Below the pieces are notes generated by a model. The model searched no databases, had not been told where the DNA came from, and saw only the letters and a list, made by a program, of their open reading frames with translations. A DNA stretch of 64,000 nt, taken from Amoebophrya sp. A120 (Eukaryota > Protista > Dinoflagellata). Position 1 is the stretch's first letter; every line of letters begins with the position of its first letter. The DNA lies in assembly GCA_905178155.1 (NCBI GenBank), contig CAJINV010000007.1, positions 2,709,151 through 2,773,150 on the forward strand, written 5' to 3'. The translations under genes were made by a program, and so were the position numbers. Below, piece by piece: positions 14,301-64,000 of this stretch.

Positions 14301-17300
14301 GAGGAAGATTGCGCCTTTTGCATTACAAGTTTGGCGCAGATTTAGGTGCTGTTTAGCCCTTTCGAAATTTGTCATGCGAAGCAGCTCGATCATCTGCCGG
14401 CTTAAGGTACTTTTGCATGACAAATTCATGTAACAGCAGAATGTAACGTTTGAAAACGCCATATCTACAAGGCGCTCACTCGAAAGGAGCTCCAGCTTCT
14501 CCCGCAACCAGTCACGGTAGGCTTGCGTCACTTCCTGCACGTAGTTTTTGGTGGGTATCTATCACACAGAAAAAACTAAAAAGCAGGCAGGGCATATTTG
14601 TAATGCAAGAAGCAAATACACAGAAAAATCTGTCGCTGGCGGCCCCATAGCATGCTGTTTAGGATATGTTTTTTGTGTGTTCATTTCTGCGTTACAAATC
14701 TGACCTGCCTGTAGTACCTTTCTCTGGGGTAGCACAAATAATGCGGGCGTCTCGCGAACCTGCTCCTCTTGCTGCAGGAGCAAAAACTGTAGCACATGTT
14801 CCATTTGTTCGGGCTTCGCTTTCGTACAACCTTTGTCCTCGCAAACGAACTGCGCCAATTCGCGATCCCAAAACGCGTCCAAGTTTTTCATTGCTTCCTT
14901 GACTGCGGAAAGCTGGATCTGGAGAAAGTTCTGCGCGAAAAACGGAAGGCCGGCTGGCCCAATTTCGTCTGTGAAACCAAGCATGTAGCTTAAGTTTGTA
15001 CTTGTTCCAGCTTGATCATTGTAGTTCTCGACGTCCTTTCTGACTTGGCCATCTACATCAACATCAACCATCGTGGTCGTGGTTCCTGCAATGTTCATCG
15101 TAGTTCTTGTTCCGCTAGAATTTGTATTAGCACCAGCAGCAGCTGAACTGCCGGAGCAAGATGACTTGCCGCTGTCCTCTCCGATTTTCCTTTTCACTCC
15201 GCCTAATGCTCCCGTGCCGGCGGGAGCAACGTCAAAGGAATCCTCCTGGGCCGAAGGCGGGCAAATGTAAGTTTTGTTCTTCGAGAAATTGTTGTTCCAA
15301 TTCTTCTTTTGTTGTGCTGACACCATCTTCTCCGCTTGCTGTAGGTGCGCAGTGGAAGTTAGAGACTCGGGAGCGGACGCGGAGGTGGAATGCGCATCAT
15401 GAGAGATTATGTTATTTTCGCGGGAAGTAGAGGGTGTTGCCAAACCATCGTGTTCAAAAATACCAACGCGGACGATGAGTTGCTCTGTAGCTCTTGAAGC
15501 AGGGGGTTTTTTACTACTAGTAACCGCGGGGGCATCTTCAGCTGCAACACCAACAGCCGAAGAAGAGGACGATGTTATTAACGGAGATGATGATGTAAAT
15601 CCGCCGGTGTTTATTTCTTGTTCGGCTTGGTCGTGCGGCACACCACCTGCACGACCGACTACTGTTTTCTCCATTTCCAGCTTCAGAACTACGTCCTGCA
15701 ACGGTGAAAACCTCATATCGAGGCCGCCTGACATATTCGAAGAAGAGGTGGAGATGATTTTCCCGTTCTCTTCAGAAAGAAGAACCGCATTGTGGAACGC
15801 TGGCCGCTCCTTGTTCTCAAGATTCTTGCTATGCGTATTTCCAATGTTTTGCTCCTCATCTTCTTCGCCTTCGAGGACGTTGACACCGTAACACGCGACT
15901 TTTACTCTGCTCCGGGCCGAGAGATGCGGAAATATCAAATGCCCTTCCATTTCACTTTTTTGGTTAGGCTGCAGATGCTTTTCGTACGCTTTTGCGTACA
16001 GGGTCATTCCGCCAATCCAAGTGCGGATAAACGTCCGGACCGCAGCGCGGCGGAGCGCCATGCGCCGCAGGTAATCAACTTCTACCTGCTGGGTCTTATC
16101 TTGCTCGTTCACCAAGCTCATGGAGTCCGCCAACTTCTCCAGGAAAAGAAGACTCTGACCCAGGGAAGAAGTCGTGGGACGAGGGCAGGAAGTTGCAGCG
16201 GGTCTCTCTTCGTGTTTGTCGTTCGTACTGCCCTCGATAAAAGATGTTGAAACTTCCCACGGCTTAAAGATTTTATTCAGCTTCTGGTGGCCCGTGGCCA
16301 CCTTCCGCAGCCGCCGCGCCCAAGCGTTGTTGACATTGGTGTGCTGGTCAGAAACACCGGTAAAGGTGCTGCTAGGCGTGTTGCTAAGCAGCGACGTTGC
16401 TGACGAGGATGTTGATCCGCGCACGGGCTTCGCCTCCAAAATCGGCATCCAGAGTTCCGGAATGGGTCGCAGCGTCGCCAGCACCCGGAGCTCCTCCATC
16501 TCCAGGTAAGGGTGGCAGAACTGCTTTACCACAAAATTCAGCTGCGTGCACACCGCGGCGCAGCGAGAAACCATCTGCAGGTTCAGGTACTTCGTGAAAA
16601 TCTGATCCGCGATCAAATCGTCAGGCAGGTCCAGCAGGGAAACCACCGGCTTCGGTTCTTGCGCGTTGTAGTTTATCTGTCCCGCGGTTGGCGTTGGGTC
16701 ATCAAACTCGTCCAGGTCTGGAATTTTGATCTTGCACAAATCATCACCACTCGAGTCAGAATGTCCCGAATCCGATTCAATTTCCGCGTTGTTCTTGTTT
16801 TCTATTTCTTCTTCTTCAGATGACATTGCATAAAACGGTGTAGCACAGAACATGTCCGGTAGAACGGCCGGAACTTGCGGCCGAGGGTCAGAAGTTGTAC
16901 CGCTCACGCTCAGGGGCATGATCATTTTGTGTGGACGTCGACCAACTTGGTCTTCATTTTGAGGACCCTCTGCTGCTTGATTTTCAGAGAATATATCCTG
17001 TTGCGCGGGGGCATCTAGCTCCTTAAAATGATTGCCCTTGAGACCAGCCAGCTGCTGCGTCCTTGTGGTGCCCTCTTCTACTTCACTAGTCATGTCAGCA
17101 ACATTTTTATTGCTGTTTTCTCTTTCTGGTGACAAACCTTTCAGGACATCCTGCTCGACATGGCTTTCACACCCACCGCTAGCCGGGCTCTGCGAAAGAG
17201 CGGTTCCTGGGCTCGTGGTCTTCTTGGCCGCCTCGTGGAGGTGGTGATATTCGGCCGGTTCAAAAGATGAATCGGGCGCCGGCTGCTGCATCACACTCCC

Positions 17301-20225: not shown

Positions 20226-23200
20226 TTATCTACTGGCGGCCACTGTCACCGTGCTGGCCTGCGTGCAGCCACCCAGACACTGGTGGATACCCACTGTGAC
20301 CGTCAATACCGCGGATTTCTGCACGGTGTTAATCGCGTGCACGTCAAACGCGCGGTCGGCATTGGCGTCTTCCGTTGTGAACGTGTAGGACGTCATGGTG
20401 TTGTCGACCGAGATGTAGGTGTTCAGGCCCTGGTTGCTCCTCACGAGGTAACCAATGATCGTATCACCACCATCGTTGTCTGGTGGCACCCACGTGAGGA
20501 CAACCTGAGTGAGAAGCATTTTGGTGGTTTCTTGTTAAGTAATTCTCGTCATAATGCAACATGGAATCAAATTTCCATTCGTTTACTACTTTGCACCGAC
20601 CTACAACGACAAAAAAAAAATGAAAATCCATTATCGTGAAAAAGTACATTTGACTGTATGACACTGGTCGCCGTGACGGATTTCACGCTGTCTGGCGGGA
20701 GCGCCGCCTTCATGCGGATGATGTCGGACAATTCGGAGTCATAGAACCCGGAGTTACTGGCCGCGATCGCAAAGTACCAGACTTGGCCAGAAGTGACCTG
20801 CAGGAACTCGTACTCGTTGGTCGCCGACGTGCCGGAATTTTTCGGCGCCACCGTAGCGAGCAGCGTCCCCTGCTTCCCGTCCACCTGATCGCCGTACACC
20901 TTGTAGGTAATCTCCGCGTTTTGGGACCCGCCACGCCCGGTTTCCGTGAAGGGCAGTTGGTTCCACTGCATTTTGATCGTGCTGTTGGTGACCACCGTAT
21001 CTTCGTGTCTCTGCACCCCGGTGTATCAGAAGGAAAAATCCCCCCTCCCCATATCAAAACGAGGCTTCTGATCAATCAGCCTTGTCTTGCAGTAGTGGAC
21101 TGCAGGCATATGCCGAGCCTGGGTAGAAGTCAGGTCTTCACATAGACGCCAACCATGGCAAATGTCGACGCTGTAGCCCCAGCAGCATCACAAACCGCTT
21201 GCATAATGCGGCGGAGCCTGTGGAGTTGCTTTGTAGCAAGACACGCGCGATTTGTGACTACAAATCAGCATCAGAAAGTTCCAAAAGCGTGCCTTTTCGA
21301 TATGGGGAGGGGGGATTTTTCCTTACGATACGGTGATCTTGGTCGGCGGGGAAACCGCGTACCCGTACCCGTCCGAAGTCGAGGTATGGGAGTGCCAGAA
21401 TCGAAATCAACAAAATCGAAAAATTTGTGATGCATAAAATGTAGGGCACGCGAGGCCTGTTTTGGGAAGCAGGCAAATGAGACCGATTGTAAACCTGTTT
21501 AGGGGTGTAAAATGTGTTGCCAGAGTAGCACGACAGGAGCAGTCTGCTTCGCCCAAACAGCATGACAGACTGGATTTTGGTGGTCCCGAAATTTGTCATG
21601 CGCCACTTGAAAACTGAGGCTCCAACTGGCATCGATTTTGTGCATCGCAAATTTTTCGATTTTGACGATTTCGATTCTGACACTTCCATACGATGTGTAC
21701 GTCGAGTAGGCGCTGGCGCCCATGGAGTTGAACGCCCGGATCTTCACCTTGTACTGCGAATTCGCCTATCAAAAGTAAAAATGTCTGGGTCTGGAAACTT
21801 GTGATGCTGGGTGGCGTCTCATGATGAGGCCACAGATGCTGGCTCAGCATGAAAAGTTTCTGAGCTCCTAGGTGTTGTCTATTCTGCATGACAAACTGCG
21901 CTTCTGCATCACAGAAAAACGGAGCTCTGGGGTAACGTGCATGACAGATTTAAGAGTCATGATAGACAAGCATGACAAACATGAATTCTTCCAGACCCAG
22001 ACACTTTTGCACTTGATATCGCCACGAGGTTTGGCGTGATGTCCGTCGCAGCCACCGTGTACGCGGGTTGGTACAGCAAGTTCCAGGGTGCCGCCGCGGT
22101 CCCGCCCATCGACACGATCTGCGGCTGATCCACCGCGGCGAGGGAAATCGCGATCTCGTAGTTGAAGACCGCAGAACCTTGATCCGCGGACGGGTCCCAG
22201 ACGATGGTGAGGGAGGGAGGGGAATAAGTCGCGGCGGAGATTTGAACGTTGGTCGGTGGGGACGGAACCGTAGCTGCGAACACGGAAGCGGTGGGTGAGC
22301 GGCCGGACTCTCCGACTTCGTTCACGGTGGAAACTTGCATCTGGTAGTTCAAACCAGAGGTCAAACCGGTGACCGTGCAGGACTGGGGCGCGGGCGAGGT
22401 CTCCATACCGCACGTCGTGTCTGCAACATCGGAAATGGACGACGCGCCACCAGAGTTGCGGTAAAGCTTGTAACTGCAATAAAGTTTTAATAATATTGAA
22501 AAATGACTATAAATTTCATTTCGATTGACGCAGCAGCAGAGCGCTTTCAGCTATCTGAAGAAACTGCAAGAGAACGTTGTCTGCCAGGTCTACCACGAGC
22601 AGTGCTTGTCTTTGCTCTTTAAGACGATCATGTAGCTTTTTCCTTCTAACATCTCAGACTACTCCAATTCGTTTAGTTTGTCTTCGACAAGGCCATCTTC
22701 GGCAAAAACTCCTCTTTCAGAGAAAAAGAGAACGACTCGCCGAGAAAGCCGTGCCTAATAAAAATTGGTTTTTCCTCATGCGGATGAACGATGAATCGTG
22801 CACGTGCTGCAGTGATGAGTACTAACTTTTTAACTGCTTTTTTTATTTTCATGCTTTAACTGCTTCATGTTCTTGATCAGTGTCATTTCTTCATTTTCAG
22901 ACTTACCTGTGTTGGACTTTTCGGTCGGCATCGTTTCAAAAAAGTTGAAACTGAGGTGCACTTCCGAGATCATACGGTTTAGTCATCATGCGAAAGCGAT
23001 TGAAGTTGAAGCCAGTATGTTGTGCATGTAGTGGAGCTACAGATCATAGAGCTGCACAAACGCAAATCAATGAATCAATTGTCGTCGCTTATTGGTCGTG
23101 CATGGCTTTATGGAATTCGTTCATGACGGCGGCAACACAGGAGCAACCTAAATTCATACCCTATCACGGTTCCACCGTTGTTCTGCACAATGCCCCATGT

Positions 23201-26200: not shown

Positions 26201-29200
26201 GTTTTTGTTTCCATGAATCATAATCATGTGTTAGCTTTCGCATTCGGAACAAGATGAATGCAGTCTGTGGTCAACGTGCAGCTTGCAGGAACTGTAACTA
26301 ACGAGCAAGAAATCAAACGCAATAAAACCACGATCGAAACTGTCACAAACGAAAATACGTGCTCGGCTGCACCCACGCGAGCGTAATCGAATTCGCTGTG
26401 CTCGCGGAGACAAACAGTGAATCATCGGGCAGCTTATTCGCTTTCGCCGCGGCATAGAACGTGGCAGCGGGGGAGACGGAGGACGTCCCAGCGTCACTGA
26501 TGATCTGCACCAAGAACCGATAAGGCAGAGACGTCACCAGGTTGTTAAACGTGTACGTTTGCTGTGTGACATCCGAGACTGAGTAGGATAAAAACGGCCC
26601 TCCATTCCCGTCGTCGATGTAAACCGTGTACCCCTGCAACACCGCGTTGTATCAAATGCAAATATGTCTGGGTCTGGAAACATGTAAACTTCTGATGCGC
26701 GTTTCATACCAGACAAAAATCTGTCATGCATGGACCGCAAAAGTTGCTCATTTCTTGTCACCTCCCAAAGACGGCGCTTTTCATGCGGATGAGGTATTGC
26801 GAAGCCGGCTCAAAACCTGTGACGCTAGGCCTTGCATGCCATACCTTCTGTGTCAACATGCACAAGCAGCACAATACTCTTCCAGACCCAGACATATTTG
26901 CATTTGATACGTTGTTGAGATTTGCAATGTTCCCGTAGCTGTAGCCGATCGTGATGGAAGTTTTCGTGGAGGAAGCCAACGTCGGCGCAGTCGGGGTGTT
27001 TGGCGGCGCGGAACACCGGACGCGGATGTAGTCGGAAAAGGGAGAATCCCCCACCCCGCTGGTCGCCGTCATGCGGAACCAGTAGTTGTTGCCAAAGTTG
27101 CAGCCGAGCCTCGTGTAGTTCAAGGCGGTGAGGTCCGTGAAAGCGGTTCCGGCGTTGAAGTTGACCCCGTCGGTGGACTCGTAGATCTTGTACCCGGTGA
27201 GCGGTGATCCGCCGGTGGACTCGGGGAGCTGCACCGTCAAGGTGATGTCCCCGTTGGTCGACGCTGCTTTGATCAAAGACCCCTTCCCCGGCACAGTCGC
27301 GGACACGACGGACAGGATGCCGGACTCCGCGGACTGCCCGGCCTCGGAAGTGACCGCGACCTTGAAACGGTACGTGTTACCACTGGTGAGACCCGTTGCC
27401 GTGTACTGCGACTGCGTGATGTCGGTTAATTTTATGGATCCAAACGCCCCGTTGGCGCCGTTGTCGACGAACACCGTGGAGAACAAGTGCAGCGCCCCGT
27501 GCATGTCCGGGGTGGGCCACGAGACCGTGATCGAGGTCGCGGTGGAGGAGACGTAGGTCGGTGTGTCGGGGGTCGCCGGGGCTTGGGAGCAGCGCCGGGC
27601 TAGCGTGTCGGAGAGACCCGAAATGCCGTTCGCGTTCTGGGCCGCCACGTTGAAGAAAAGGAATTTTCTGTGGTTTTCGATTTTTTTAGTAAATGCTTAG
27701 TGCCTTCATTCGGTGACGAACAGAACAGAATCTGCGGGGCACATCAAACTCATCTTCTTCTTCATGTTCATCACATATCACCTCCCTCTATGGAACGATT
27801 GAAAAGAAGTAAAAGATTTTGTACCTCGCCGCATTGAACCCGTTTTGCGCGCACTGTTGCACGTACTGCTTCGTGTTAGGATCAGAGACCGTGGCCGTGT
27901 ACGTGTTCCCGTCCGCGTCCGCGACGTAGACCAAAAACCCCGTGATCACCGACCCGCCGTTCGACCCCGTGAAGTCCCACCCCACGGTCACCGACCCGTC
28001 ATCCGAAGCCAATGCCCGCACGTTGTCGACCGGAGACGGGACCGAGGCCGCTTTGACCGAGGAGGAAACGGGGGACAACGCGGAGCAGCCAACGGAGGAG
28101 CAAAGCCGGATCTTCGCACGGTAGCTGTGCCCCGTGGTGACGTTGTTGGTGTAGGTGTAGGAGAGCGAACTGGCGTCGTTGAAGGCGATCACCTCGAACA
28201 CATCGTCCGCGTCATTTTCGTCGTCAATCTGGATTTCCCAGCCCGTGTGCGTCGCACCATTCAGTTGCAAGGTCGACGGGTTGTACAAAGCCACGACGAT
28301 GGAACCTTGCGAACCGGTCAGCGTCGGACTTGCCGGGGTTGCCGGTGGCCCGGTGCAAACTAGGGCGACGGAGTCAGAGAACGCCCCGGTGCTCGTTGCA
28401 GAGCCCCCAACGCCGTTCATCGCCGCCACCTTGAAGTAGAACGTCGCACCGGAAGCGGGACAAGCGTAGGTGAAATAGGTTTCCGCGGCGGAGGGGGTGT
28501 AGCCCGCGAGGCTGTAGGTGGATCCGCCGTTCCCGGAGACGAAGACCGCGAACTTGTTGATCGTCACCCCGCCATTATCCTTCCCCGCGTAGGACCACTG
28601 CAGCGTGATTTCGCTTGTAGTCGAGTTCAACACCGTCGACGGGTCCGGCTTCTCGGGGAGACCGCCGACTACTAGATTGACAACGGACGTGAAAGGCCCG
28701 CAAGCGTTGATGTTGCAGGCCTGGATCCGCAGTTGAATCGTGTTTCCCGTGACTAAGGCGTCGGTCGGGCCACCGTAGCGAGCCGCGGGCGGGACGTTTA
28801 GGAATTGCTCCTCCCCGCCCGCTGTCATGTCCTTCCAGCCAATCACGTACTTCTTCAGCGGCGCGTCATTCGCGTTTTGGATGCTCGGCGGGTCCCAGGA
28901 AATCAATAAAGTCGTCCTGGTGGACGCGTAGTACGCGATATTGTTCGGCTCCAAGGGGTTTTTGCTCGCGTACCAAGTCCCCACCCCCGACCGGATCCCG
29001 AAGCCGTTCGAATTCTCCGCCCGCACTTGAAACCTGTACTCGTTGCCCGGCGTGTAGTCGGTTTTTGTGAAGGTTACGTCCGTGCCAGAATACAGCAACT
29101 GGTCGATCGCGCCGACGACCGAGTTGTCGTAGTAGAGTTCGTATTTCGAAACGGTCAGCACCGAGTAGGCGGCAGCCCAGTTCAACTTGATCACCGCCGA

Positions 29201-53572: not shown

Positions 53573-54206
53573 ATTGTTGTCGTAGAGAAGAGGTTCGTAA
53601 GTTATTTTGCTGAGCGACCGCACAAGCTCAGTACCCGTCACACACACACGAGATCTTAGATCGTATTTTCCCACGAGGAATAGATCTTTTGGTAGGACCT
53701 GTGTATTCTAGGCATGTAGAACATATGGAGCACTGGCTACAAACCTGTAGTTTGTGCGCTCACGTGTGAAACGGGTAGTGGCTTGAACGATTTATACAAA
53801 TCGGGAGAGGGAGCTATCTATGGTTTTTGGTATACGAAAACTGACCGAGTGTGGCGAACACAAGCCCAGAGCCAACACGTTTGGTGTGGGTGGGTGGGTT
53901 TTCAAAATAAAGTGTGAGTGTGGTGACCGGATGCTCACAGCCCCGACTTACGAACTACCATAGACAACTCCCACAATTGACGATCAACTATTTCCTTACG
54001 AAAACCTCAGATCTCATAATTGTTGTCGTTGAGAAGAGGTTCGTAAGTTATTTTGCTGAGCGACCGCACAAGCTCAGTACCCGTCACACACACACGAGAT
54101 CTTAGATCGTATTTTCCCACGAGGAATAGATCTTTTGGTAGGACCTGTGTACTCTAGGCATGTAGAACATATGGAGCACTGGCTACAAACCTGTAGTTTG
54201 TGCGCT
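53573..54206. repeat. Split direct repeat terminus: 188-bp repeats at 53573-53760 and 54019-54206 around a 258-bp spacer (B1-A2-B2 layout)
   Basis: The two copies differ at two positions. The layout matches the 3' end of PAT/Ngaro-type elements; a copy of the spacer is predicted beyond 64000. Confidence 0.85.
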
Positions 54207-54244: not shown

Positions 54245-57200
54245 TCAAAGTGTGTACGGCTTCTCATAAATTGCAACATCTGTTCCTTGTCGAAAGGCAA
54301 CGTCTACAGCTTTCGCAACGACTGCGCAATAGTCTTTTGTGGCACCAGCACAGGAGCCTTGGCCGATTTTAAGAGGGATTGCTACAGTGTCGAATTTGCT
54401 ACGTGATAAAATGAAGTCGTAAAGTGCGTTTTTGAATCTATACAGTCGGGCTTCTGCTGAATCGTCTTCAGTAAAGGCTTCTTCTGGTACAACGTCTGTA
54501 GGACGAGGAATTCTCGTTCCTGGGGATGTAGGCGCCCCTGGCCATGCCATCGCGTAAATGTTTACTACTCGACTTATCAACTCCCATTGTCCTAGTGGTT
54601 TTGCGGAGTATGGTTCGGAGTAGCGGTTGGCCAGGGGAAATCTCGCAAATAACTGCGCTGCTAATCCTTTAGGTTTGCAAGGGACACAGCATGTTATATG
54701 TACTATGTAATGCTCTTTGGCGTCACAAATGTCCTTGATTCTAAGTCTACTTCTGGCTAACTCAGGAAATTGGCGGAAGTAAGGCTTTTGTAGAATTTTT
54801 GTAATTTGTGAGCCTATCTCTGTTTTTTCTCTATCTATTCCCCAAAAGTGCAACGACACAGACGACAGCAAAACCCAGTCTTCCTCGGCTCCAAAGACCA
54901 GCGGGTTATGTGCTGTGCAAAACACTTTTGCTCCCTTCTTGTAGGTGCAGATTCCGGTAAAGTTCGCCGCAAGACTGTAGAACATGGGGTTGATCATGGG
55001 CAACATCAGTGCGAAGCGCGGTCTCTGTGCCATCGGGATTTTCATGAAATTCGACAAGAAGCGGGCGGCTACTACTGCAAGTTGTATTGGTGGGAACCAC
55101 CACGATCGTTTCTCGTAGAACAGGTCAAAATTATCAAATGGATGATTGTTCGCGCAGTAGTATTCTGCGAACCGGTGGTTGTGCTGATCTGCAAAACAAT
55201 CGACCTCGAGGCCTGGAAAATGCCGCATCACCATGTTCCATGACCGCTTACACAGAATTTTGTTGGGGAAGGGGTCTTTGAACGCGAACAAGTGGGCTTC
55301 GTGACGTGACAAGGCGTCCGCGATGATGTTCTCCTCACCGGCGATTTTTCCTGCTATTATCTCTGTGCCTGAGGCGGTAGCGAAAGCGGTGAGGTCGCGC
55401 GTGACTTTCTTCAAGATCGTTGTTGACGTGGAACCTTTGTTCGTCGTGCGCTTCGCGGTGGGGTTGTCTGTCTTGATCAACACCACTTTCTTGTGAAAAA
55501 AGGCTTCCCCTAGCTTCTCTCGCGCGGCCTCCAACACATGAAGTACTGCCAAGGACTCCAATTCGTTGATGCTGGCGGACTCTGTGGTAGCGAAGAGTGC
55601 ATACTTTGATTGCGTTATCGAGAAAAAATTGGGCGTGCGCGTGGTGGACCTAGTCCAGGGGAGAGTAGGCCAGACGGACGGGTAGCTACCCCGAACTTGC
55701 TGGTAGTGAGTGGCGACCATACTAGGCGAAAGGGGCGTCCCCCATACCACCGACGCGGCTCTGCACGTAGGGGCAAATGGAAAACAGGGTAGCCAGAATA
55801 TGGGTTGCTAAACACATCAATTCGGGCGAAAAGGAGAAAGATCATATTTTTTGTAGTTTTTGACTACAGACAAATGTACCTGGAACGCTGTCATCGAAGT
55901 CGCCCGCAAAGTACTGGTCTGACACTGTGCCGCCCCAGCCTCTGTTGCGTCTTTGGTCGCAATCCTCGATGTCTCCTTTTGCTGCGTCCATGTAAACGCC
56001 TATGAACATGCTGCTACTTAAGGATGCAAAAAAGGCTTTCCCAAAGGCGAGCACTTCGCGTGACCAAATAAACGTTTGTTCTCCGTTGTAGAACATCTGC
56101 CTCGCGTGGTCCTCTTGCAGCAAATCTTCCCAGAGGTCCAAGTCGTCGAACACCGACTCGTTGATTGTCACCTGTGGGTTGAACTGCTTGTTCAGCTTCG
56201 CCCACTGTTTCGGCGCTCCCGACTGCACCAGCACACGACTAAGCTCGTCCAGGGGACCTCTGGGGTGGATGAGTGCGCACGATCCAAGCTTACCTTTGAT
56301 GCTTGCGACGTCGCGTGCCTTCGCTTCGTTATTCCTGCCTTTTTGCTTGAATTCCCTCACGGCTTTAAGGTACTCTTCCCTGCGTGCTGGGTCCAGGATG
56401 ATGTTGCACACTCTCGGGTCGGTGTTGAAGACGTTGCCCAGCCAGGGGAAGCTTGTGGACGGCTGGATTAGCTTCGATTCTTTGTGGTGGATTTTGATGC
56501 CCATCTTGGTCAAGATGTACACCGCTCTTTCCAGGTCAAACTTTGCTTTGTCGTAGTTCGGCCGTCCGTTCACTGGGTTGGTGATGAAGCGGACATCATC
56601 CACGTAGTCGAGATATGGCGATGTTACGCCGTTTCGCGCCACCGCGGCTAGGAAGGCCTTCACGAAGAAATCATTTTCTTGTATGCAAGGAAAAAAATCA
56701 GTGCTCTGTGTGATGCTGGACCTGATCATGCAAAGGACAGGGCACTGATTTTTTTCGATACCACCAGGAGCCGGTCCGATGCCAAATGGGCAATATAAAT
56801 GTCCACCTTTTTGTGTTGTGGCTTCTAAATTTATTCCAAGCATCCTGCGGAAGCGGGCATGTACTAGCCAGTGACCAAAGGAATCTTTGAAATCAACTCC
56901 GCTGCCTAGTGAATTCGGCTTCAAGTGCAAGAACATGTCCCAGTACGTCTTGTAGTCTACTTCTGTGGAAAAAATCGACTGGTTGATGAGCGCCCATTCT
57001 GAACTATAATCGCTGATGACTCTGATCTTGTCGTCGCGTTGGAAAAGCAAATTTCCTGGCACACAAGTCAGGTCCGGAGGGTAGTCACAGAACTGGACTT
57101 GCTCTCCCTCCTCGTTTTCCTGGGTTTTGACGTCGTACAAAATTATTTTCTTGTCCTCAAAGAACCGCTTGAACTCACCGCTGTACACTTCCGGGTGCTG

Positions 57201-57884
57201 TTTGGCTGCTGGGTAGTTCTCACACACGACGGGGTCGAGGTGTTCTGCGATCTGCTTGAACTTTATGCCGGTACATGCTTTTCTGAGTGCTTCTGGTGCG
57301 AGGCCGTAGCGGACACATTCTGCTGGGTTGATGGTCAGACCTTCAAAGGCTTGGTCATCCTCTGCTTTCCGCCATCTATCTTCTGGGCCATCTTGCTTCG
57401 CCAGCAGCGGCCTAACTTCTTCTCTCGTGATCGGTGCGCCTTCTTTGCGATAGTCGTCAATCGAATACGGTGATATTGGCGTGAAGGCGTACGGGTCACC
57501 ATAGACGTTGGTTGGCGCCACCAGGCGGGAGAGGTCGATCTCGTCGATTTCATGTTGATAATGCTTTGGCGGCTTTGCTGGCTGCGGGAGATGCTGATCC
57601 CAGACTGCGGCTGGTGGCTGCGGCTTGAAAATCAGCCTGGGGTCTTCCCAGCACTCGTTGTACTGCCGCTCTGTATCCTTTTCGACCACTTTTCTCGTGG
57701 TGCCCCGCGCCGGAATGTGCACTTCTGGCAGCCTGCCTATTTGCACGCCGCAAAACGACTTCTCATCGCGTTTTTGCTTCTTCGCGGCTCGACGATCGGC
57801 TTGCTCGTGCACTCTGGCTAGGGCTGCGGATCTCCCTATCTCGTAGCCGCAAAACATGGCTACCCGGAACACGATGCGAGGCAT
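54245..57884 (-). CDS. pol: Pol: reverse transcriptase - RNase H - DIRS methyltransferase-like - macrodomain (spliced)
   Basis: RT motifs VDFKDSF, CPFGIGPAP and YVDD. RNase H motifs YMDAA, INELE, TDN, NIIADALSR. MT-like VDCFAD...WFPP. GT-AG intron 55582-55879 joins SVP|ESASINELE; probable in-frame intron at 56678-56761. True start uncertain. Confidence 0.88.
55623..55827 (-). ncRNA. Putative structured intronic RNA element, copy A
   Basis: Shares conserved blocks with 59546-59755, and GCTACCC/GGGTAGC pairing is possible in both. Strand assumed from the host transcript. Confidence 0.5.
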
Positions 57885-60168
57885 CTAGAAGGGGTTTCGC
57901 ATTATTAATCCTGTGTCTGGTCTGTAAACAAAAAAGGAGTCTCTCTTTCTTCGTTCGTGCTCAATAATTGCGAGAATATTGGACCTGCTTAGACAACATT
58001 GCGCGTCGGCGCATGCATCTCTGAGGTCTTGACGCACGCGCCCGCGAGCGACATCCTCGGGAGAAAGTAGCCACGCATTTTTGTTTATCCAGTTAGTTTG
58101 AATTGTACATAATTGCTTATCAGAGCAAAGCGCAAGTTGTGCTCTTAAGGTTCTATCACTCCTGTGAATGTTATCCTGGTAGCGCCTCTCCTCTCTCGGC
58201 AAGCGCCTGATCAACTCTTGTGCTACTTGATACATCTTCTCTTCGGCCTAAATGTGAATTGAAAAAGATGACTGTGATGCGTAAAACGCGACAAGAAGAA
58301 AGAGTTTTTCGGAATAGAGACGACGACGATGAACAAAAGAAAGTAATAAGAATGCTGTCTTTTCTGACTGCCTGCACTTTTTTGCATCGGGTGATTCCAC
58401 TTTATTGTTCTTTGTGTATCGAAAAAGGTTACTCAAGAGAATATTTTTTCAACAAAGATTCAAAGTGATGCTCACGATCGTTTTTGTTCAGTCGATGTGT
58501 GGGCGCAACACAGGTTCTTGGGGGTTCACAATCTCCTCATCAGAGCTCTCACTGCTCACATCAACTTCGTTGTCGGACGAGTGGTGGCTCGGTGGTAGGC
58601 TGCCTTCCGGCTCTGGGTTTAATTCCAGGTATCGCACTACTGCCCGTCCGATGGCTCGTCCATGAGCATTAAAAAAGTTCCTCGCGGCGATCTGTGCTCC
58701 GACCAATCTTCCCATGCACCTGAATTAGTCATCATTGGTTGATGGGTACGACGACTCGCTGGAGGAGTCATTGGTTTTGTTTTTCAAATGCTCCGGGAGA
58801 TCCCGCGGGTGCAGCAATTCCAGCAGCATTTTGTCATTCAACCGGGCTAATTCTTTTCCTTCTTTCCGCAGGTTAAGCTCGTACATCCGGATTTTCTTGA
58901 ACTTCATCTTTTCTAAGTTGAAGATCTTGGCGATTTCCGCCGGCGGGGCGTCGCGATGCTCGCGATACATTGCTACTGCTGTGTGCGCGAAATTGCGGGT
59001 CTGCAACAAAGAATTCCACTTCTTTCCTTGCATCGTCTCGTTTTGGGCCGGATAGTGCCAAATTTCACTTAGATGGCTATGGACACTGTCCATCGCGCAC
59101 GCCAGCGCTTCCGCGAGTTTCCCTTGGCAAGCCTGCCGGGAAGCAATTGCTTCCAAACAATCCAACAAAGTCACGCACGTGGAACGTAACTTGTCGGGGT
59201 CGGAGGATTTGGAAGCAATGAGATTTTTGGACATGCACCAGCGGAAACCGGTGATGACTTCCATCAGCTGTTTCGAATTTTGCTCAGATTTTCCTAAGTC
59301 CTTGATGTTCATCAACATTGACTTCGCCTGCCGGTCTACCGGCTGTTTGACGAAGTAATCGATATGTTCAAGATTCATCCTAAATCCGACTATCAAAAAA
59401 CTGATCGTGGCAAAGGTCCCTGTGGATGAAAAAAGGCAAAGCACTAAAAGAGGCATTTGGTGACAGCTGTACTAGCCGTTTTTGTGCTCCAATTTTTTTG
59501 ATCGTATCGTCGTGCCCCATTTGATCTGGGCTTTCGCAGGGCGGCAAAAAATGCCCGTGCGCAGGGTGGACCGTGCTCTAGGCTTTCTTCCCTCCAGGAA
59601 CCGGGGGCTACCCCAGAGCGTGTGGATCACGTGTGTGGGCGCTCTAGAGAATGGCACAGGAGCGTCCTCCATACCACTTACTGCGGCTCTGACATGTATG
59701 ACAAATGGAAAGTCGGGTAGCCAGAATATGGGGTGCTAAATACATCAATTCGGGCAAAATGTCGAAAACAGGTAAAAAATAACAATAGAACCGGCAGTGT
59801 TCGGCCTTCTGCACCACCAAGTATGCCACGCTAGCACACAGGAGGGAATAGCCGTTGATGAGGCCGAGTTCGATCAGCATGTACAGAATCAAAACTCTTC
59901 CCGCGGACGTTGAGTAGAACTTAATGATGTAGCACCAGTGCTGTGCGGACCGGTAAGTGCGCATAAACGATTCAAAGTCGAAACGACTGTCGTCGTAAGC
60001 GGCTCGTGCTAACAGTGCAGGCGCATTGTACAGGCGCTGTACCAGAATCCAGCACTTCTGTACGAAAATGCGCGTGACATGGGCCCAAAAGCGCCAGCCA
60101 GAAAGGTGCATCAACGGTCGTTCCATCTTGATTTGATTTTTGCTAATACTTAGTCTATTATTCGTCAA
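57885..60168 (-). CDS. Unassigned accessory ORF(s) of the retroelement, probably spliced
   Basis: ORFs of 174, 243, 75 and 116 aa. A phase-2 GT-AG intron at 59380-59791 would join EHCR|MNLEH. No domain recognised. Confidence 0.45.
59546..59755 (-). ncRNA. Putative structured intronic RNA element, copy B
   Basis: 39 of 41 identical to copy A in the first block, then short conserved blocks separated by unrelated spacers. Confidence 0.5.
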
Positions 60169-60307: not shown

Positions 60308-62548
60308 CTAAACTACGTTGTACAGATTTTCGTCGCAATTCTGAATGAAGTCCAGTACTTTCCCGTAGACCGCCACGTCACAATTGCCTTCACCTACGTG
60401 TGCGAAAAGCCTCGGGCAGAGTTCTTGAAAATTCGAAAGTGAGATTTTTCCCCAGGCTATTTTCTCTATACAAGCTGTAAACTTGATCGCGTCGTCATCG
60501 TGTACGAAGGACGCATGCGCGCTGTCGAGATTCCTGAGGGCTAAGACACTGTTATAATCATCTATGGTTTTGCTCTCGTGCATATTCACCATGTTCCTGA
60601 GCTCTGTGCTGGAAATGGGCGCATAATGGATATCTAAACAGTAGGAATTTCTCCAGCCGCCCTGGTGATATGCTAATCTGCGCGAGGCGTCGTGGGCAAT
60701 AAAATGTTTTGCCCCACCTTTGCGGAGTGAGATCGGCTTCTTTGGGGCTACATCTGGTAAGGCCGTTTCGAAGAATGTTTTCACATCCTTGCGAATGCCG
60801 TCCTTGCTACTCTTCTGCCCGCCCCTATTTCTAATGTTTGCGTTACCGATTACAAAAAAATAAGCGTCGTTTGGCGACCACTTTCTGCCAATAACAGCGT
60901 CGAAGAATGCCCTGCCGAACCTTTGGTAAGCTCCTAAGAGGGTTGTAAAGTATGATGGTACCCAGGCTTCTGAGCCCTGAGACAACTGGTCGTTTTTTGC
61001 GTGCGCTACAAAAATTGCAAATTGGGGCGAGATGCCGTTTGTGCATGTTACGGCAACGTCCTTCACCCTCAGCTCGCGCAATTCATCGTTTCTTCTTACA
61101 CAGAAGAAAGCGACAACTACCATCGTCAGCTTCTGCAACCGCATTACTAAATTGATGTCTGATGATGACATGTTCAGGACTGCACGCTTGGACCATTCCT
61201 TGTCTGCCTTCAGGAGGTGTCCATGGTGTTGCGACCAGTGATCCCATTCTGCGTGGTACGCGTCCAACATCTCGGTCGTGGATGGACACCATTTTGCGTC
61301 TAGCGGGGCACCATGGTGTGCTTCTTTCTTGAACCTGAAAATGTTATCATTATGATATATCCATATGGAAATGATTATGTGGCACAAATAATTGTGGCAG
61401 TAGCAAGAGAAAATTTTCGAGCAGTAAGAACAACATTACCCTTTCCACAGCTTCTGGAAAAAGGCTCCTCTGTTCTTCGTCGTGTACCCACTGAGCTCTA
61501 CCCGGGAGGCGTTGAAGGCGTTCAACGCGGCGCTTAGCTGCAGGAAAGCGCCCCACCGTATCCGGTTCGTCTCTTTGTTTTTGTAGGCTTTATGAATCTC
61601 GTGGACGTGGGCAAACGCTACGAACATGAGGGTGGCCTCGGCGTCAGAGGTTATGGGCCATAAAACGAACCCGAGTTCTTTTGCTACTGCTGGCACAACT
61701 TTAGACAAAATTGCCGAGTATCCTTTCGAAGTGCCATCTGTGATGGACGCACTCGCGTGTTCTGCGGTGGCTGCAGTCAGGAGTTCGGCCGCCTGGTTCG
61801 ATAGCGGGAACGCGTCGAATATGCCGTTGTTCGACGCTTTGATCTCGAAATCGAAAGTCACTTCGTCTTCACAGAATGGCTTGTACTTTACAACGGCTTT
61901 TCCTTTTGCTTGCTGGTAAAAATGTAGCACGCTCGCTATTGACGGAGTCGGCGTTGAGAGAATGATGTTGCCCGGTCTGGAAATGAGTGCAACTGAATCA
62001 GACGTGGCATCGCTCACGGACGACGACGACGAAGCCATGCTGAAGCTGACTGATAAAGACGACGCTGCGCTCGACGAACTTCTGCTGCTGACGGGCTTGA
62101 AATTCAGTAATGCGTCGAGCGGCTTTTTAACTTCTTCTTTCCGTTTCTCCATGTGCTCGTGGATGCCCGCCAAACGAAAAGCAGAGGAAGCGAATTTGTG
62201 CTGGCTGCTTGGAGAAGACACCGCTGTTACAAAACCGGAATCTGGGATGATTTCGTTGAACTCATCAAGTGCTTGCTCATGCCAGTCTTCCACTTGCACC
62301 AGCTCAGTTTCTACGGCGTCCATGATGGTGTTGTAATAATCTGGGGCTTTTCGCTTTGATGGCTGCGATGGTCTTGCTGCGTCGCTCAACTGTGGGTGGC
62401 TTTTCGTGGCTGACTTCTTGTCGGCGCCTGCTAGCTCCTTCAGGGAGGCTGCAACCGCTGCTTGCTCTGCCAGCTTTTGTAGCTCGCGCCGCAGGACGTC
62501 CTCGCCCAGGGCTTCGTGACACGCATTATTTGCAATGAACTTATTCAT
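60308..62548 (-). CDS. Tyrosine recombinase (two exons, ~710 aa)
   Basis: Motifs FFCVRRNDELRELRVKDV, AKNDQ, ISLRKGGA and GGW...IHY. GT-AG intron 61335-61439 joins LWKG|FKKE in frame. Confidence 0.88.
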
Positions 62549-62837: not shown

Positions 62838-64000
62838 TTATTGTCCGAAAGGGTTGCTATACACTGAAGCTGAAGCTTTTCCACCATTGTTTTTTTGTCG
62901 CTTCAAACCGGCCCCTTTCCCGCCCTGATTGTTAAACTGTGGGGCCTTTGGGAAAGGACGCAACATATTACCACCTAGACCTTGCTGCTGGTTTCCATGC
63001 TGCTGGAACTGCTGGCTCCCCTTGCCTCCTCCTTTGAGGGGACAGTCTTTGTTCCAGTGCGCCTCACCACCACACTGCGGCTTTGGGCACTTGATGTAGC
63101 AGATGTTTCCTGATGCAGCGCACGCTTTCAAGCCCAGCTGGCCGTCCTTGTGGTGGTTGCCTGGTCCTTTGCCTGCCATGATGCAGTTGACGCAGCTCTG
63201 CGTGTGGGACATCCAGGTAGACAGAATCGTGGGACTCTTCGCATTCGCAGCCTCCAGTGCACCTAAGCCGCCCGCGGTCGTTTTGGGTGCGTTGTTCATG
63301 ATGGTGTTGATTTCGTCGTACACAATTTTGTTCTTCTGCTGCTCTGAGCTTGCACCACCACCGGGGTGTTGTCCCAAGTCCGGGACTCGATTTTTGTTGT
63401 TGCCGCCAATCATAGACATGAGATTTCCACCCAGTTGCATCATGCGTTGAATGATATTTGGTTTGCACAAATTATCACACGCTGCCGTTGTCATGGCCGC
63501 CGCGTATTCTAAATTGTAAAATCCCTCGTCGGTTGGAGATGTGGTATACTTGTTTTTGAGCTGGGCCGCGAATTCTTTGATGAAGAAATATCTGCGGAGA
63601 GTTTGTTTTTATCATTACTTAGCAAAACAGCTCACTCAAGCGTGAATATGCAAAAGACATGGCAGAATACAAAAGATGAACAAACGACGAATGAGAGTTT
63701 GGAAGCATCGGACGAAACAAACAGGATATACGTACATTTGGTAATTGTAATTCAGCGGTAGCTTCTTGGGCGCGATCGAGTTTTTGGTCAACGCGGCCGA
63801 TTTTCGTTCGTAGTATGTCACTGGCCATAGAAAATACCGGGCCAGGATAGTCCACTCTTCGTTCGGGAAGAGGTCTATCAGTGTCTGGAGGTATTGCTTC
63901 AACTCGTACAAGGAACCCGCCGGGGGCAAGATCATGTTCTTCCAACTGCACTTGGGAATATCTTGCTGGTTGGTACTGTCGATGAAGCTCTGTGAGGTCA
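62838..64000 (-). CDS. Gag-like protein with CCHC-type zinc knuckle (partial, spliced)
   Basis: CPKPQCGGEAHWNKDC knuckle followed by a G/K/Q-rich tail. GT-AG intron 63592-63735 joins NYQI|YFFIKEF in frame. Confidence 0.7.

Follow-up and report, generated by a model that had tools for sequence, protein, structure and literature searches.

Retroviral packaging signals, located downstream of the splice donor, and the RNA transport elements of other retroelements are the structured cis-acting elements of unspliced RNA with which the locus described here may be compared. The transport elements span 162 to 412 nt according to the available text of PMC11379458, from 162 nt for the constitutive transport element (CTE) of Mason-Pfizer monkey virus (MPMV) to 412 nt for the MusD transport element (MTE). 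We consider here a motif of about 210 nt that is present twice in a stretch of 64,000 nt from Amoebophrya sp. A120 (contig CAJINV010000007.1, positions 2,709,151 to 2,773,150; the whole of this stretch is called the window), within what is likely a PAT-like tyrosine-recombinase (YR) retrotransposon of the order DIRS. In size, and as a structured cis element of unspliced retroelement RNA, it would resemble the signals just mentioned, lying on the sense strand in a region that is spliced out; it differs from them in that it matches none of them in sequence, is found twice in a DIRS-order element of an alveolate, is missing one copy in one relative of the element, and has a function that is predicted.

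Three other systems come close. In Penelope-like elements, hammerhead RNAs (PMC4209133, available text) likewise place an RNA motif in or beside a spliceosomal intron, the retroelement being one in which introns are kept, whereas the present motif is without a hammerhead core, is about four times longer and is internal rather than in terminal repeats. The introners of Amoebophrya have terminal inverted repeats and short direct repeats (PMC7789003 and PMC12130899, available text); they share with our locus the host genus, a precise presence or absence between relatives and dispersed copies, but the intron that holds the first copy of the motif (intron A) is a canonical GT-AG intron without terminal inverted repeats, the ends of the two motif-bearing stretches are not conserved, and the motif is of low copy and conserved internally rather than terminally. 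Finally, PAT-like elements, as presented in the available text of PMC4157794 and PMC6681497, have in common with the window's element a gag-like gene, a likely YR, a reverse transcriptase (RT)-RNase H-methyltransferase (MT) and 3′ split direct repeats; the window's element differs by at least three predicted introns and by extra open reading frames (ORFs), and the word 'intron' is absent from the main text of both papers as available. How RNA is selected for reverse transcription in DIRS-order elements, and how introns come to be kept in retroelements, are both open questions.

The repeated motif and the predicted introns around it

The two copies are on the sense strand of one element, in non-coding parts of it:

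55621-55829, minus strand: copy A of the motif of about 210 nt (nhmmer, blastn and alignment)
59546-59757, minus strand: copy B of the same motif (nhmmer and blastn)
55774-55827, minus strand: 5′ core in copy A, from GCCCG to GCTACCC and then a TTTTCC tract (contig depth, identity to B)

Searching the window by nhmmer with either copy returned A and B as the sole matches, in agreement with a sequence model, and every block on which the original prediction of two diverged copies had relied was located, in order. The copies align over 214 columns with 70% identity (blastn, E = 7e-28), in a markedly uneven way: 15 to 19 identities per 20 columns are found over the first 100 nt, with 91% identity over the 54 nt of the 5′ core, down to 7 or 8 in the second spacer, and the 3′ half contains three exact islands of 8, 8 and 7 nt. 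This three-island pattern was reached in 1 of 2000 alignments with a shuffled partner and in 361 of 20,000 column permutations, and the patchiness of identity, taken as its variance between alignment windows, was equalled in 221 of 20,000 permutations. On these results the repeat is genuine and probably under selection, the statistical strength being moderate. The spacers align between A and B no better than shuffles do (139/1000 and 82/1000), and they match the rest of the window no more than by chance, which leaves a role as guide loops unsupported. Three candidate extensions were discarded: an ATCAAA-n4-GCAC block 3′ of both copies, reached in 558 of 2000 shuffles; the pairing of its CAAA with motif positions 53-57, which was post hoc; and a GAAA tetraloop on the 3′ side of B, which a sister copy no longer has intact (59535-59536, DNA run X1).

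Run X1 also bears on the number of copies. Depth is about 20-26 over the host gene and about 36-70 over the coding body of the element, pointing to two to three close copies of the latter. The intron-A region is covered by 13 X1 contigs (8 pieces visible), in which the flanks of other copies are legible for 30 nt. The summed contig depth reaches 279-283 at 55787-55812 against 24 further 3′, a sum that is inflated by overlapping contig ends and from which copy number is taken as a minimum only; no fewer than five more copies, differing in their flanks, are present in the genome and have the 5′ core (about 45-57 nt) in common. In five of the 13 contigs the sequence changes at the 5′ edge of the motif; beyond that edge these contigs are similar to one another (agreement 0.78) and resemble a block in A's own flank, and a separate survey of X1 counted four contigs with other flanks at A and two at B. 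The four visible pieces of this kind measure 414-472 nt, which suggests that they belong to one repeated family rather than to unique host DNA, with the caveat that introner-rich host DNA could break contigs too. On the other side, three further 3′ continuations, visible over 21-30 nt, all have the TTTTCC tract after the stem strand. By eye, two of these share GGATCTCCT, one going on with TCG in the manner of a hairpin arm with a UUCG loop; this arm, GGATCTCC-T(TCG), is seen in the two continuations near the position of the hairpin of A and B, and the third continuation resembles A and B themselves. A sister copy almost identical to A differs from it at 7 positions in 49 nt of intron flank and at 1-2 in 45 nt of core (Fisher p 0.06-0.16), a weak comparison in that contig ends hide differences. 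At a loose end of X1 at 59759, some other copies show, immediately before the motif on its upstream side, an A/T-rich palindrome; in copy A only the left half of it is retained.

The stretches that hold the copies are the following:

55582-55879, minus strand: intron A, 298 nt, GT-AG, within the RNase H domain (restored frame, homologues, intronless relative)
59420-59830, minus strand: putative intron B, or an intergenic stretch; acceptor at 59420, several in-frame donors

Excision of 55879-55582 fuses two ORFs into an RT-RNase H-MT of 1113 residues in which the RNase H region is restored, the aligned homologous proteins run unbroken across the site, and the part downstream of the intron is collinear with residues 508-676 of homologue P0001 (E = 9e-14). 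On these grounds we strongly infer intron A. The last base of its 5′ exon is G, and CAG is present at both junctions. A relative of the element is, at the DNA level, precisely without it, having either lost it via spliced RNA or never gained it: an X1 contig of single-copy depth (19.8) joins 55578 to 55908 via 35 other letters, which translate in frame (ADSSIDEKVPD, against AGDFDDSVPE in the spliced window). A second X1 contig skips the same region, with an unread stretch in between. It had been proposed that each copy lies inside an intron and starts some 35-50 nt after its donor. This is borne out for copy A, which covers 209 of the 298 nt and starts 52 nt past the donor, and not for copy B, where the donor is ambiguous among 15 upstream GT or GC sites in frame, none of them outstanding, and where no distance is fixed; the acceptor side offers a pyrimidine tract and CACAG, with its last base at 59420. 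The surroundings of B are putatively an intron or intergenic, other splice phases being possible. No RNA run covers the locus: X4-X6 give 0 reads even over the host gene and are thus no measure of splicing here, and X3, X7 and X8 give no match either. Two further predicted GT-AG introns of the element, both on the minus strand, are free of the motif, one in the recombinase gene (61439-61335, 105 nt), where two X1 contigs skip or diverge with matching flanks, and one in the gag-like gene (63735-63592, 144 nt).

Folding, and comparison with known RNA classes

A model shared by both copies contains two predicted elements that can be placed:

55794-55787 with 55691-55684 (A), 59722-59715 with 59613-59606 (B), minus strand: long-range stem
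55732-55743 (A), 59670-59659 (B), minus strand: hairpin GGRG-GACG-CYCC

In this model a multi-branch loop, closed by the long-range stem of 8 bp, contains two small hairpins and a U-rich strand. None of the 17 modelled pairs is lost between the copies; two changes occur among them, one two-sided and the other one-sided. The GCTACCC/GGGTAGC stem, which had been singled out from the start, is kept in all 8 of its pairs with one G-U/G-C change, and the sole two-sided change in the modelled helices opposes GGGG/CCCC to GGAG/CTCC. Compensation had also been read into CCCCTAC versus TCATAC; their partner GTATGG is almost invariant and there is no two-sided change, so that this proposal is not confirmed, and neither is the ability of the spacers to fold, the four of them doing no better than shuffles (z 0.2, -0.6, -0.5 and 1.0). 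The G-U pairs of four helices are possible on the sense strand only. Seven Watson-Crick pairs between shuffled islands and the 5′ half appear in 211 of 5000 trials. The minimum-energy folds of A and B disagree; an alternative helix, CCATATT/GGTATGG, excludes both small hairpins, with no variation by which to weigh it, and several crossing helices are possible. Pairing is weak in the 33 nt of highest conservation, which lie at the 5′ end, as would be expected of a protein-binding or tertiary element. On the model, a folded structure of the motif is plausible.

A covariance search of Rfam 15 returned nothing at the gathering score, and at E up to 10 it gave weak, unrelated matches, none of them common to A and B. 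Signatures of the hammerhead, hairpin, twister, group I/II, C/D, Sm, RNA polymerase III (Pol III), U-type small nuclear RNA (snRNA) and hepatitis delta virus (HDV) classes were scanned as consensus patterns. The hammerhead consensus is a core of CUGANGA and GAAA in a three-helix junction, and no (C/U)UGANGA is found on either strand of either intron; the HDV-like consensus is a nested double pseudoknot with a catalytic C in J4/2, and it finds no match on either strand of A or on the sense strand of B, and one loose match on the antisense strand of B. Hairpin loop B and twister signatures are absent from the motif, and with Rfam negative as well the option of a known small ribozyme, raised at the outset, is not retained. 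Group I and group II introns are set aside by the absence of matches to R and S elements, to domain V and to Rfam, by the GT-AG ends of intron A and by the G that closes its 5′ exon. The earlier suggestion of an Sm-site small RNA fares no better, since neither T-run fits RAU4-6GR; the motif is without a C box within one mismatch and without a sense-strand CUGA, as against a C/D small nucleolar RNA (snoRNA), without a sense-strand ANANNA at a position common to both copies, as against an H/ACA snoRNA, without an internal A or B box, as against a tRNA-type Pol III RNA or a short interspersed element (SINE), and its copies show no U1, U2, U5 or U6 motif. Likenesses to U1, U5, the dinoflagellate spliced leader (DinoSL), the lariat-capping ribozyme, a dicistrovirus internal ribosome entry site (IRES) and RNase P were confined to a single copy or Rfam-negative. 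An introner element of the Amoebophrya kind was also rejected for intron A, whose ends are not complementary and have no inverted repeat.

Exact core patterns had no match in viral contigs, where a looser pattern had 9; the core pattern had none in metagenome contigs, and 34 matches in prokaryote genomes against about 69 expected by chance. The 43 viral and prokaryote pattern loci were rejected as homologues: a single one gained a score from the sequence model, across the 38 nt that surround the seed itself, and all are taken as chance, as is a match of 21 nt in phage records. No homologue came to light in these viral, metagenome, prokaryote and phage collections, which contain little eukaryotic DNA, so that the negative bears little on other protists. 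A word search with the RT gave no match, and a locus search based on it no viral loci. In the literature searched, with supplements and most subscription papers outside its scope, no RNA of this kind is described in YR elements or in Amoebophrya; neither the motif nor a structured intronic RNA of a DIRS-order element is described in the available text of PMC7789003, PMC12130899, PMC7761336, PMC6681497, PMC11379458, PMC4209133, PMC4157794 and PMC8547959.

A possible signal on unspliced RNA, and other readings

The motif is a genuine non-coding element, conserved and of low copy number, of a likely PAT-like retrotransposon, and it probably acts at the RNA level. A functional RNA inside an intron had been proposed for both copies; for A we may keep a conserved, likely RNA-level element, with G-U pairs possible on the sense strand only and a core present in further copies, and for B the intronic part of the claim is unproven. 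As to function, we tentatively place first a cis-acting signal on the unspliced RNA of the element, a reading to which we give somewhat less than an even chance. A and B would be members of a small undescribed family, a folded RNA signal in retained introns of the retrotransposon. The element would have to splice intron A in order to make its RNase H, yet it would need unspliced RNA as its genome, and unspliced RNA is presumably the usual template because the DNA copies keep their introns. A protein-bound 5′ core and a multi-branch fold closed by GCTACCC/GGGTAGC would be present on unspliced RNA only, a location that we infer for copy A; the signal would likely mark this full-length RNA for export, packaging or reverse transcription, and its presence there alone would bias which RNA gets copied. 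The second copy would be redundant, so that a relative could lose intron A. Placing a signal in an intron would be a simple means of selecting this RNA, and the retroviral and MusD transport elements cited at the outset (PMC11379458) offer a precedent. In favour of this reading are the sense-strand, non-coding position of both copies, the collinearity of the restored RT-RNase H-MT with its homologues, the islands of conservation and the rarity of their pairing among shuffles, the strand preference of the G-U pairs, the one two-sided change, the X1 pieces that suggest a repeated family, the TTTTCC tract of the 3′ continuations and, weakly, the changes in the sister copy.

Several observations weigh against this signal. 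Whole copies fold no better than shuffles (z 0.35 and -0.63), and the introns likewise; covariation over two sequences is without power, being reached in 244 of 500 shuffles. A relative does precisely without intron A, with an in-frame peptide across the joint 55578-55908, and introns free of the motif are retained in the recombinase and gag-like genes of the element; these two facts weaken the earlier idea of a motif explaining intron retention. The intron around B is unproven, its donor being ambiguous. The flanks of other copies, legible for 30 nt only, do not by themselves place those copies in YR elements, and two short metagenome RT loci (24-25% identical) are free of the motif. Both of the open questions raised above would become testable with a compact, conserved RNA element of this sort, which lies in an intron that can be removed and is missing from a natural relative.

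The alternative that survives best, although we hold it doubtful, is a small mobile intron or satellite RNA that is carried along by YR elements and enters its sites in the form of a GT-AG intron, with the conserved blocks as signals for its own replication. The precise presence or absence of intron A between relatives would follow naturally, as would the share of the intron taken by the motif (209 of 298 nt) with CAG at both junctions, and the at least five copies with other flanks, in which A's upstream AAAAACTRCAAAAAATAT block recurs; the genus, moreover, has introners of many origins (PMC7789003 and PMC12130899, available text). However, neither a terminal inverted repeat nor TAT...ATA ends are present in intron A, loss via spliced cDNA accounts equally well for the intronless relative, and the presence of two of roughly ten copies in a single element of 10 kb would demand strong targeting. 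Mobile introns keep their ends, and yet the flanks of A and B are alike only at chance level (1738 of 2000 shuffles on the 5′ side, 558 of 2000 on the 3′ side). Were such an intron without inverted ends to exist, it would represent a new intron-forming route in a genus known for intron invasion. A bolder combination, which we consider unlikely, is that of a new functional RNA class of about 200 nt, possibly pseudoknotted or catalytic, travelling as a spliceosomal intron among YR retrotransposons and letting them choose unspliced RNA for copying. If true, this would give the DIRS order its first cis-acting RNA domain within the literature searched, and a direct handle on intron keeping by retroelements.

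It is improbable, in our judgement, that the motif is an intron-encoded small RNA, freed by splicing and trimming and acting in trans as a guide, a primer, a decoy or a stand-in for U1 snRNA. The discrete size, the 6-bp terminal stem that encloses the motif in B, and a conserved, weakly paired 5′ part followed by 3′ parts that vary across copies would suit such an RNA, as would the fact that U1 was undetected in A25 or A120 (PMC7789003, available text); so would the possible 9-nt pairing of GATGTGTTT in copy A with the donor of its own intron. This pairing, however, has four G-U pairs, is broken by the sister's change at 55816 and is without counterpart in B; copy A has no terminal stem; and there is no C box, sense D box, Sm site, Pol III A or B box, U1/U2/U5/U6 motif or Rfam match.

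With still greater reserve we consider a signal acting at the level of DNA, such as an internal promoter or a protein site, or else an old internal duplication with its 5′ part homogenised by gene conversion or template switching. The absence of any folding excess, a 5′ half far more alike than the 3′ half, patchiness tests that are only moderately significant (p about 0.01-0.02) and the A/T palindrome just upstream of some other copies agree with it. Against it, complementary islands of 7-8 nt persist among diverged spacers, the G-U asymmetry favours a sense RNA, and the core is common even to copies whose 3′ parts are unrelated.

Very improbable, lastly, is a new class of catalytic RNA, self-cleaving or other, by which the transcript of the element would be processed, a role that hammerheads have in Penelope-like elements: conserved unpaired residues, variable peripheral helices, possible crossing helices and the documented ribozymes of intron-bearing retroelements (PMC4209133, available text) speak for it, and it meets the lack of any hammerhead core, hairpin loop B, twister or group I/II signature, the single HDV-like match being loose and antisense in B, and the difficulty that cleavage within the element would destroy genomic RNA unless slow.

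The host element and its surroundings

The features of the element, beyond those already given, are these:

54245-57884, minus strand: RT-RNase H-MT ORF, split by intron A (homologue profile, with RVT_1 and Dam found on homologues)
58725-60126, minus strand: one or two ORFs of no assigned function around copy B (ORF list)
60308-62548, minus strand: likely tyrosine recombinase ORF with the motif-free 105-nt intron (catalytic-type motifs)
62838-63998, minus strand: gag-like ORF with a C2HC-type knuckle and the motif-free 144-nt intron, its 5′ end beyond the window (suggested by position and knuckle)
54019-54206 (B1) and 53573-53760 (B2), minus strand: 3′ split direct repeats, 188 nt, 99% identical, with the presumed A2 between them

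The A1 repeat would fall beyond the window. Among representatives at 50% identity, 75 relatives of the window's RT were found with E no higher than 0.001, and a profile of this RT with nine of them matches RT/RNase H structures. When 11 homologues were scanned, RVT_1 was found in 3 and a Dam-methyltransferase in 1; the methyltransferase assignment of the window ORF comes via homologue P0003. One relative among ten looked up has an organism label, Amoebophrya AT5, and an AT5 gene model (P0012) fuses a related RT region to a cupin/JmjC domain, which may be an artefact of the model. The recombinase translation contains motifs of R-K-xxxR-H/W-Y type, which we take to be the catalytic pattern of tyrosine recombinases; it has no match in Pfam, PDB or PHROGs, and a structure model from the single sequence was too poor for a fold search (predicted local distance difference test, pLDDT, 35). 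For the ORFs at 58725-60126 there is no Pfam match below E 0.03, and for the downstream one no Atlas match. An RT-RNase H-MT together with split repeats points to the PAT-like group (PMC4157794, available text), and the element is therefore likely a PAT-like member of the order DIRS.

Some minor observations may be added. Extra ORFs, one with a hydrophobic stretch, are found between recombinase and RT (58725-60126 and 57885-58724, minus strand), and strong pyrimidine tracts precede several ORFs of the element, a pattern that would suit a polycistronic RNA divided up by cis- or trans-splicing. Within the RT ORF, an imperfect hairpin of about 67 nt (56690-56756) corresponds to a 19-residue insertion missing from all nine aligned homologues; it also coincides with an X1 joint (56672-56773), and it may be a small insert that keeps the frame or else a cryptic intron. 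Elsewhere in the window, hairpin-ended inserts typical of Amoebophrya introners are seen at 21023-22018, 26649-26910, 2122-2238 and 14309-14425, and the 9-mer TTGT(C/G)ATGC, absent from the retroelement, is found 17 times at positions below 29500. Adjoining the right end of the retroelement downstream, a very large host gene (20500-52450, minus strand) has many repeats, presumably fibronectin type III and PA14 domains by their look, and one open frame of 5300 codons.

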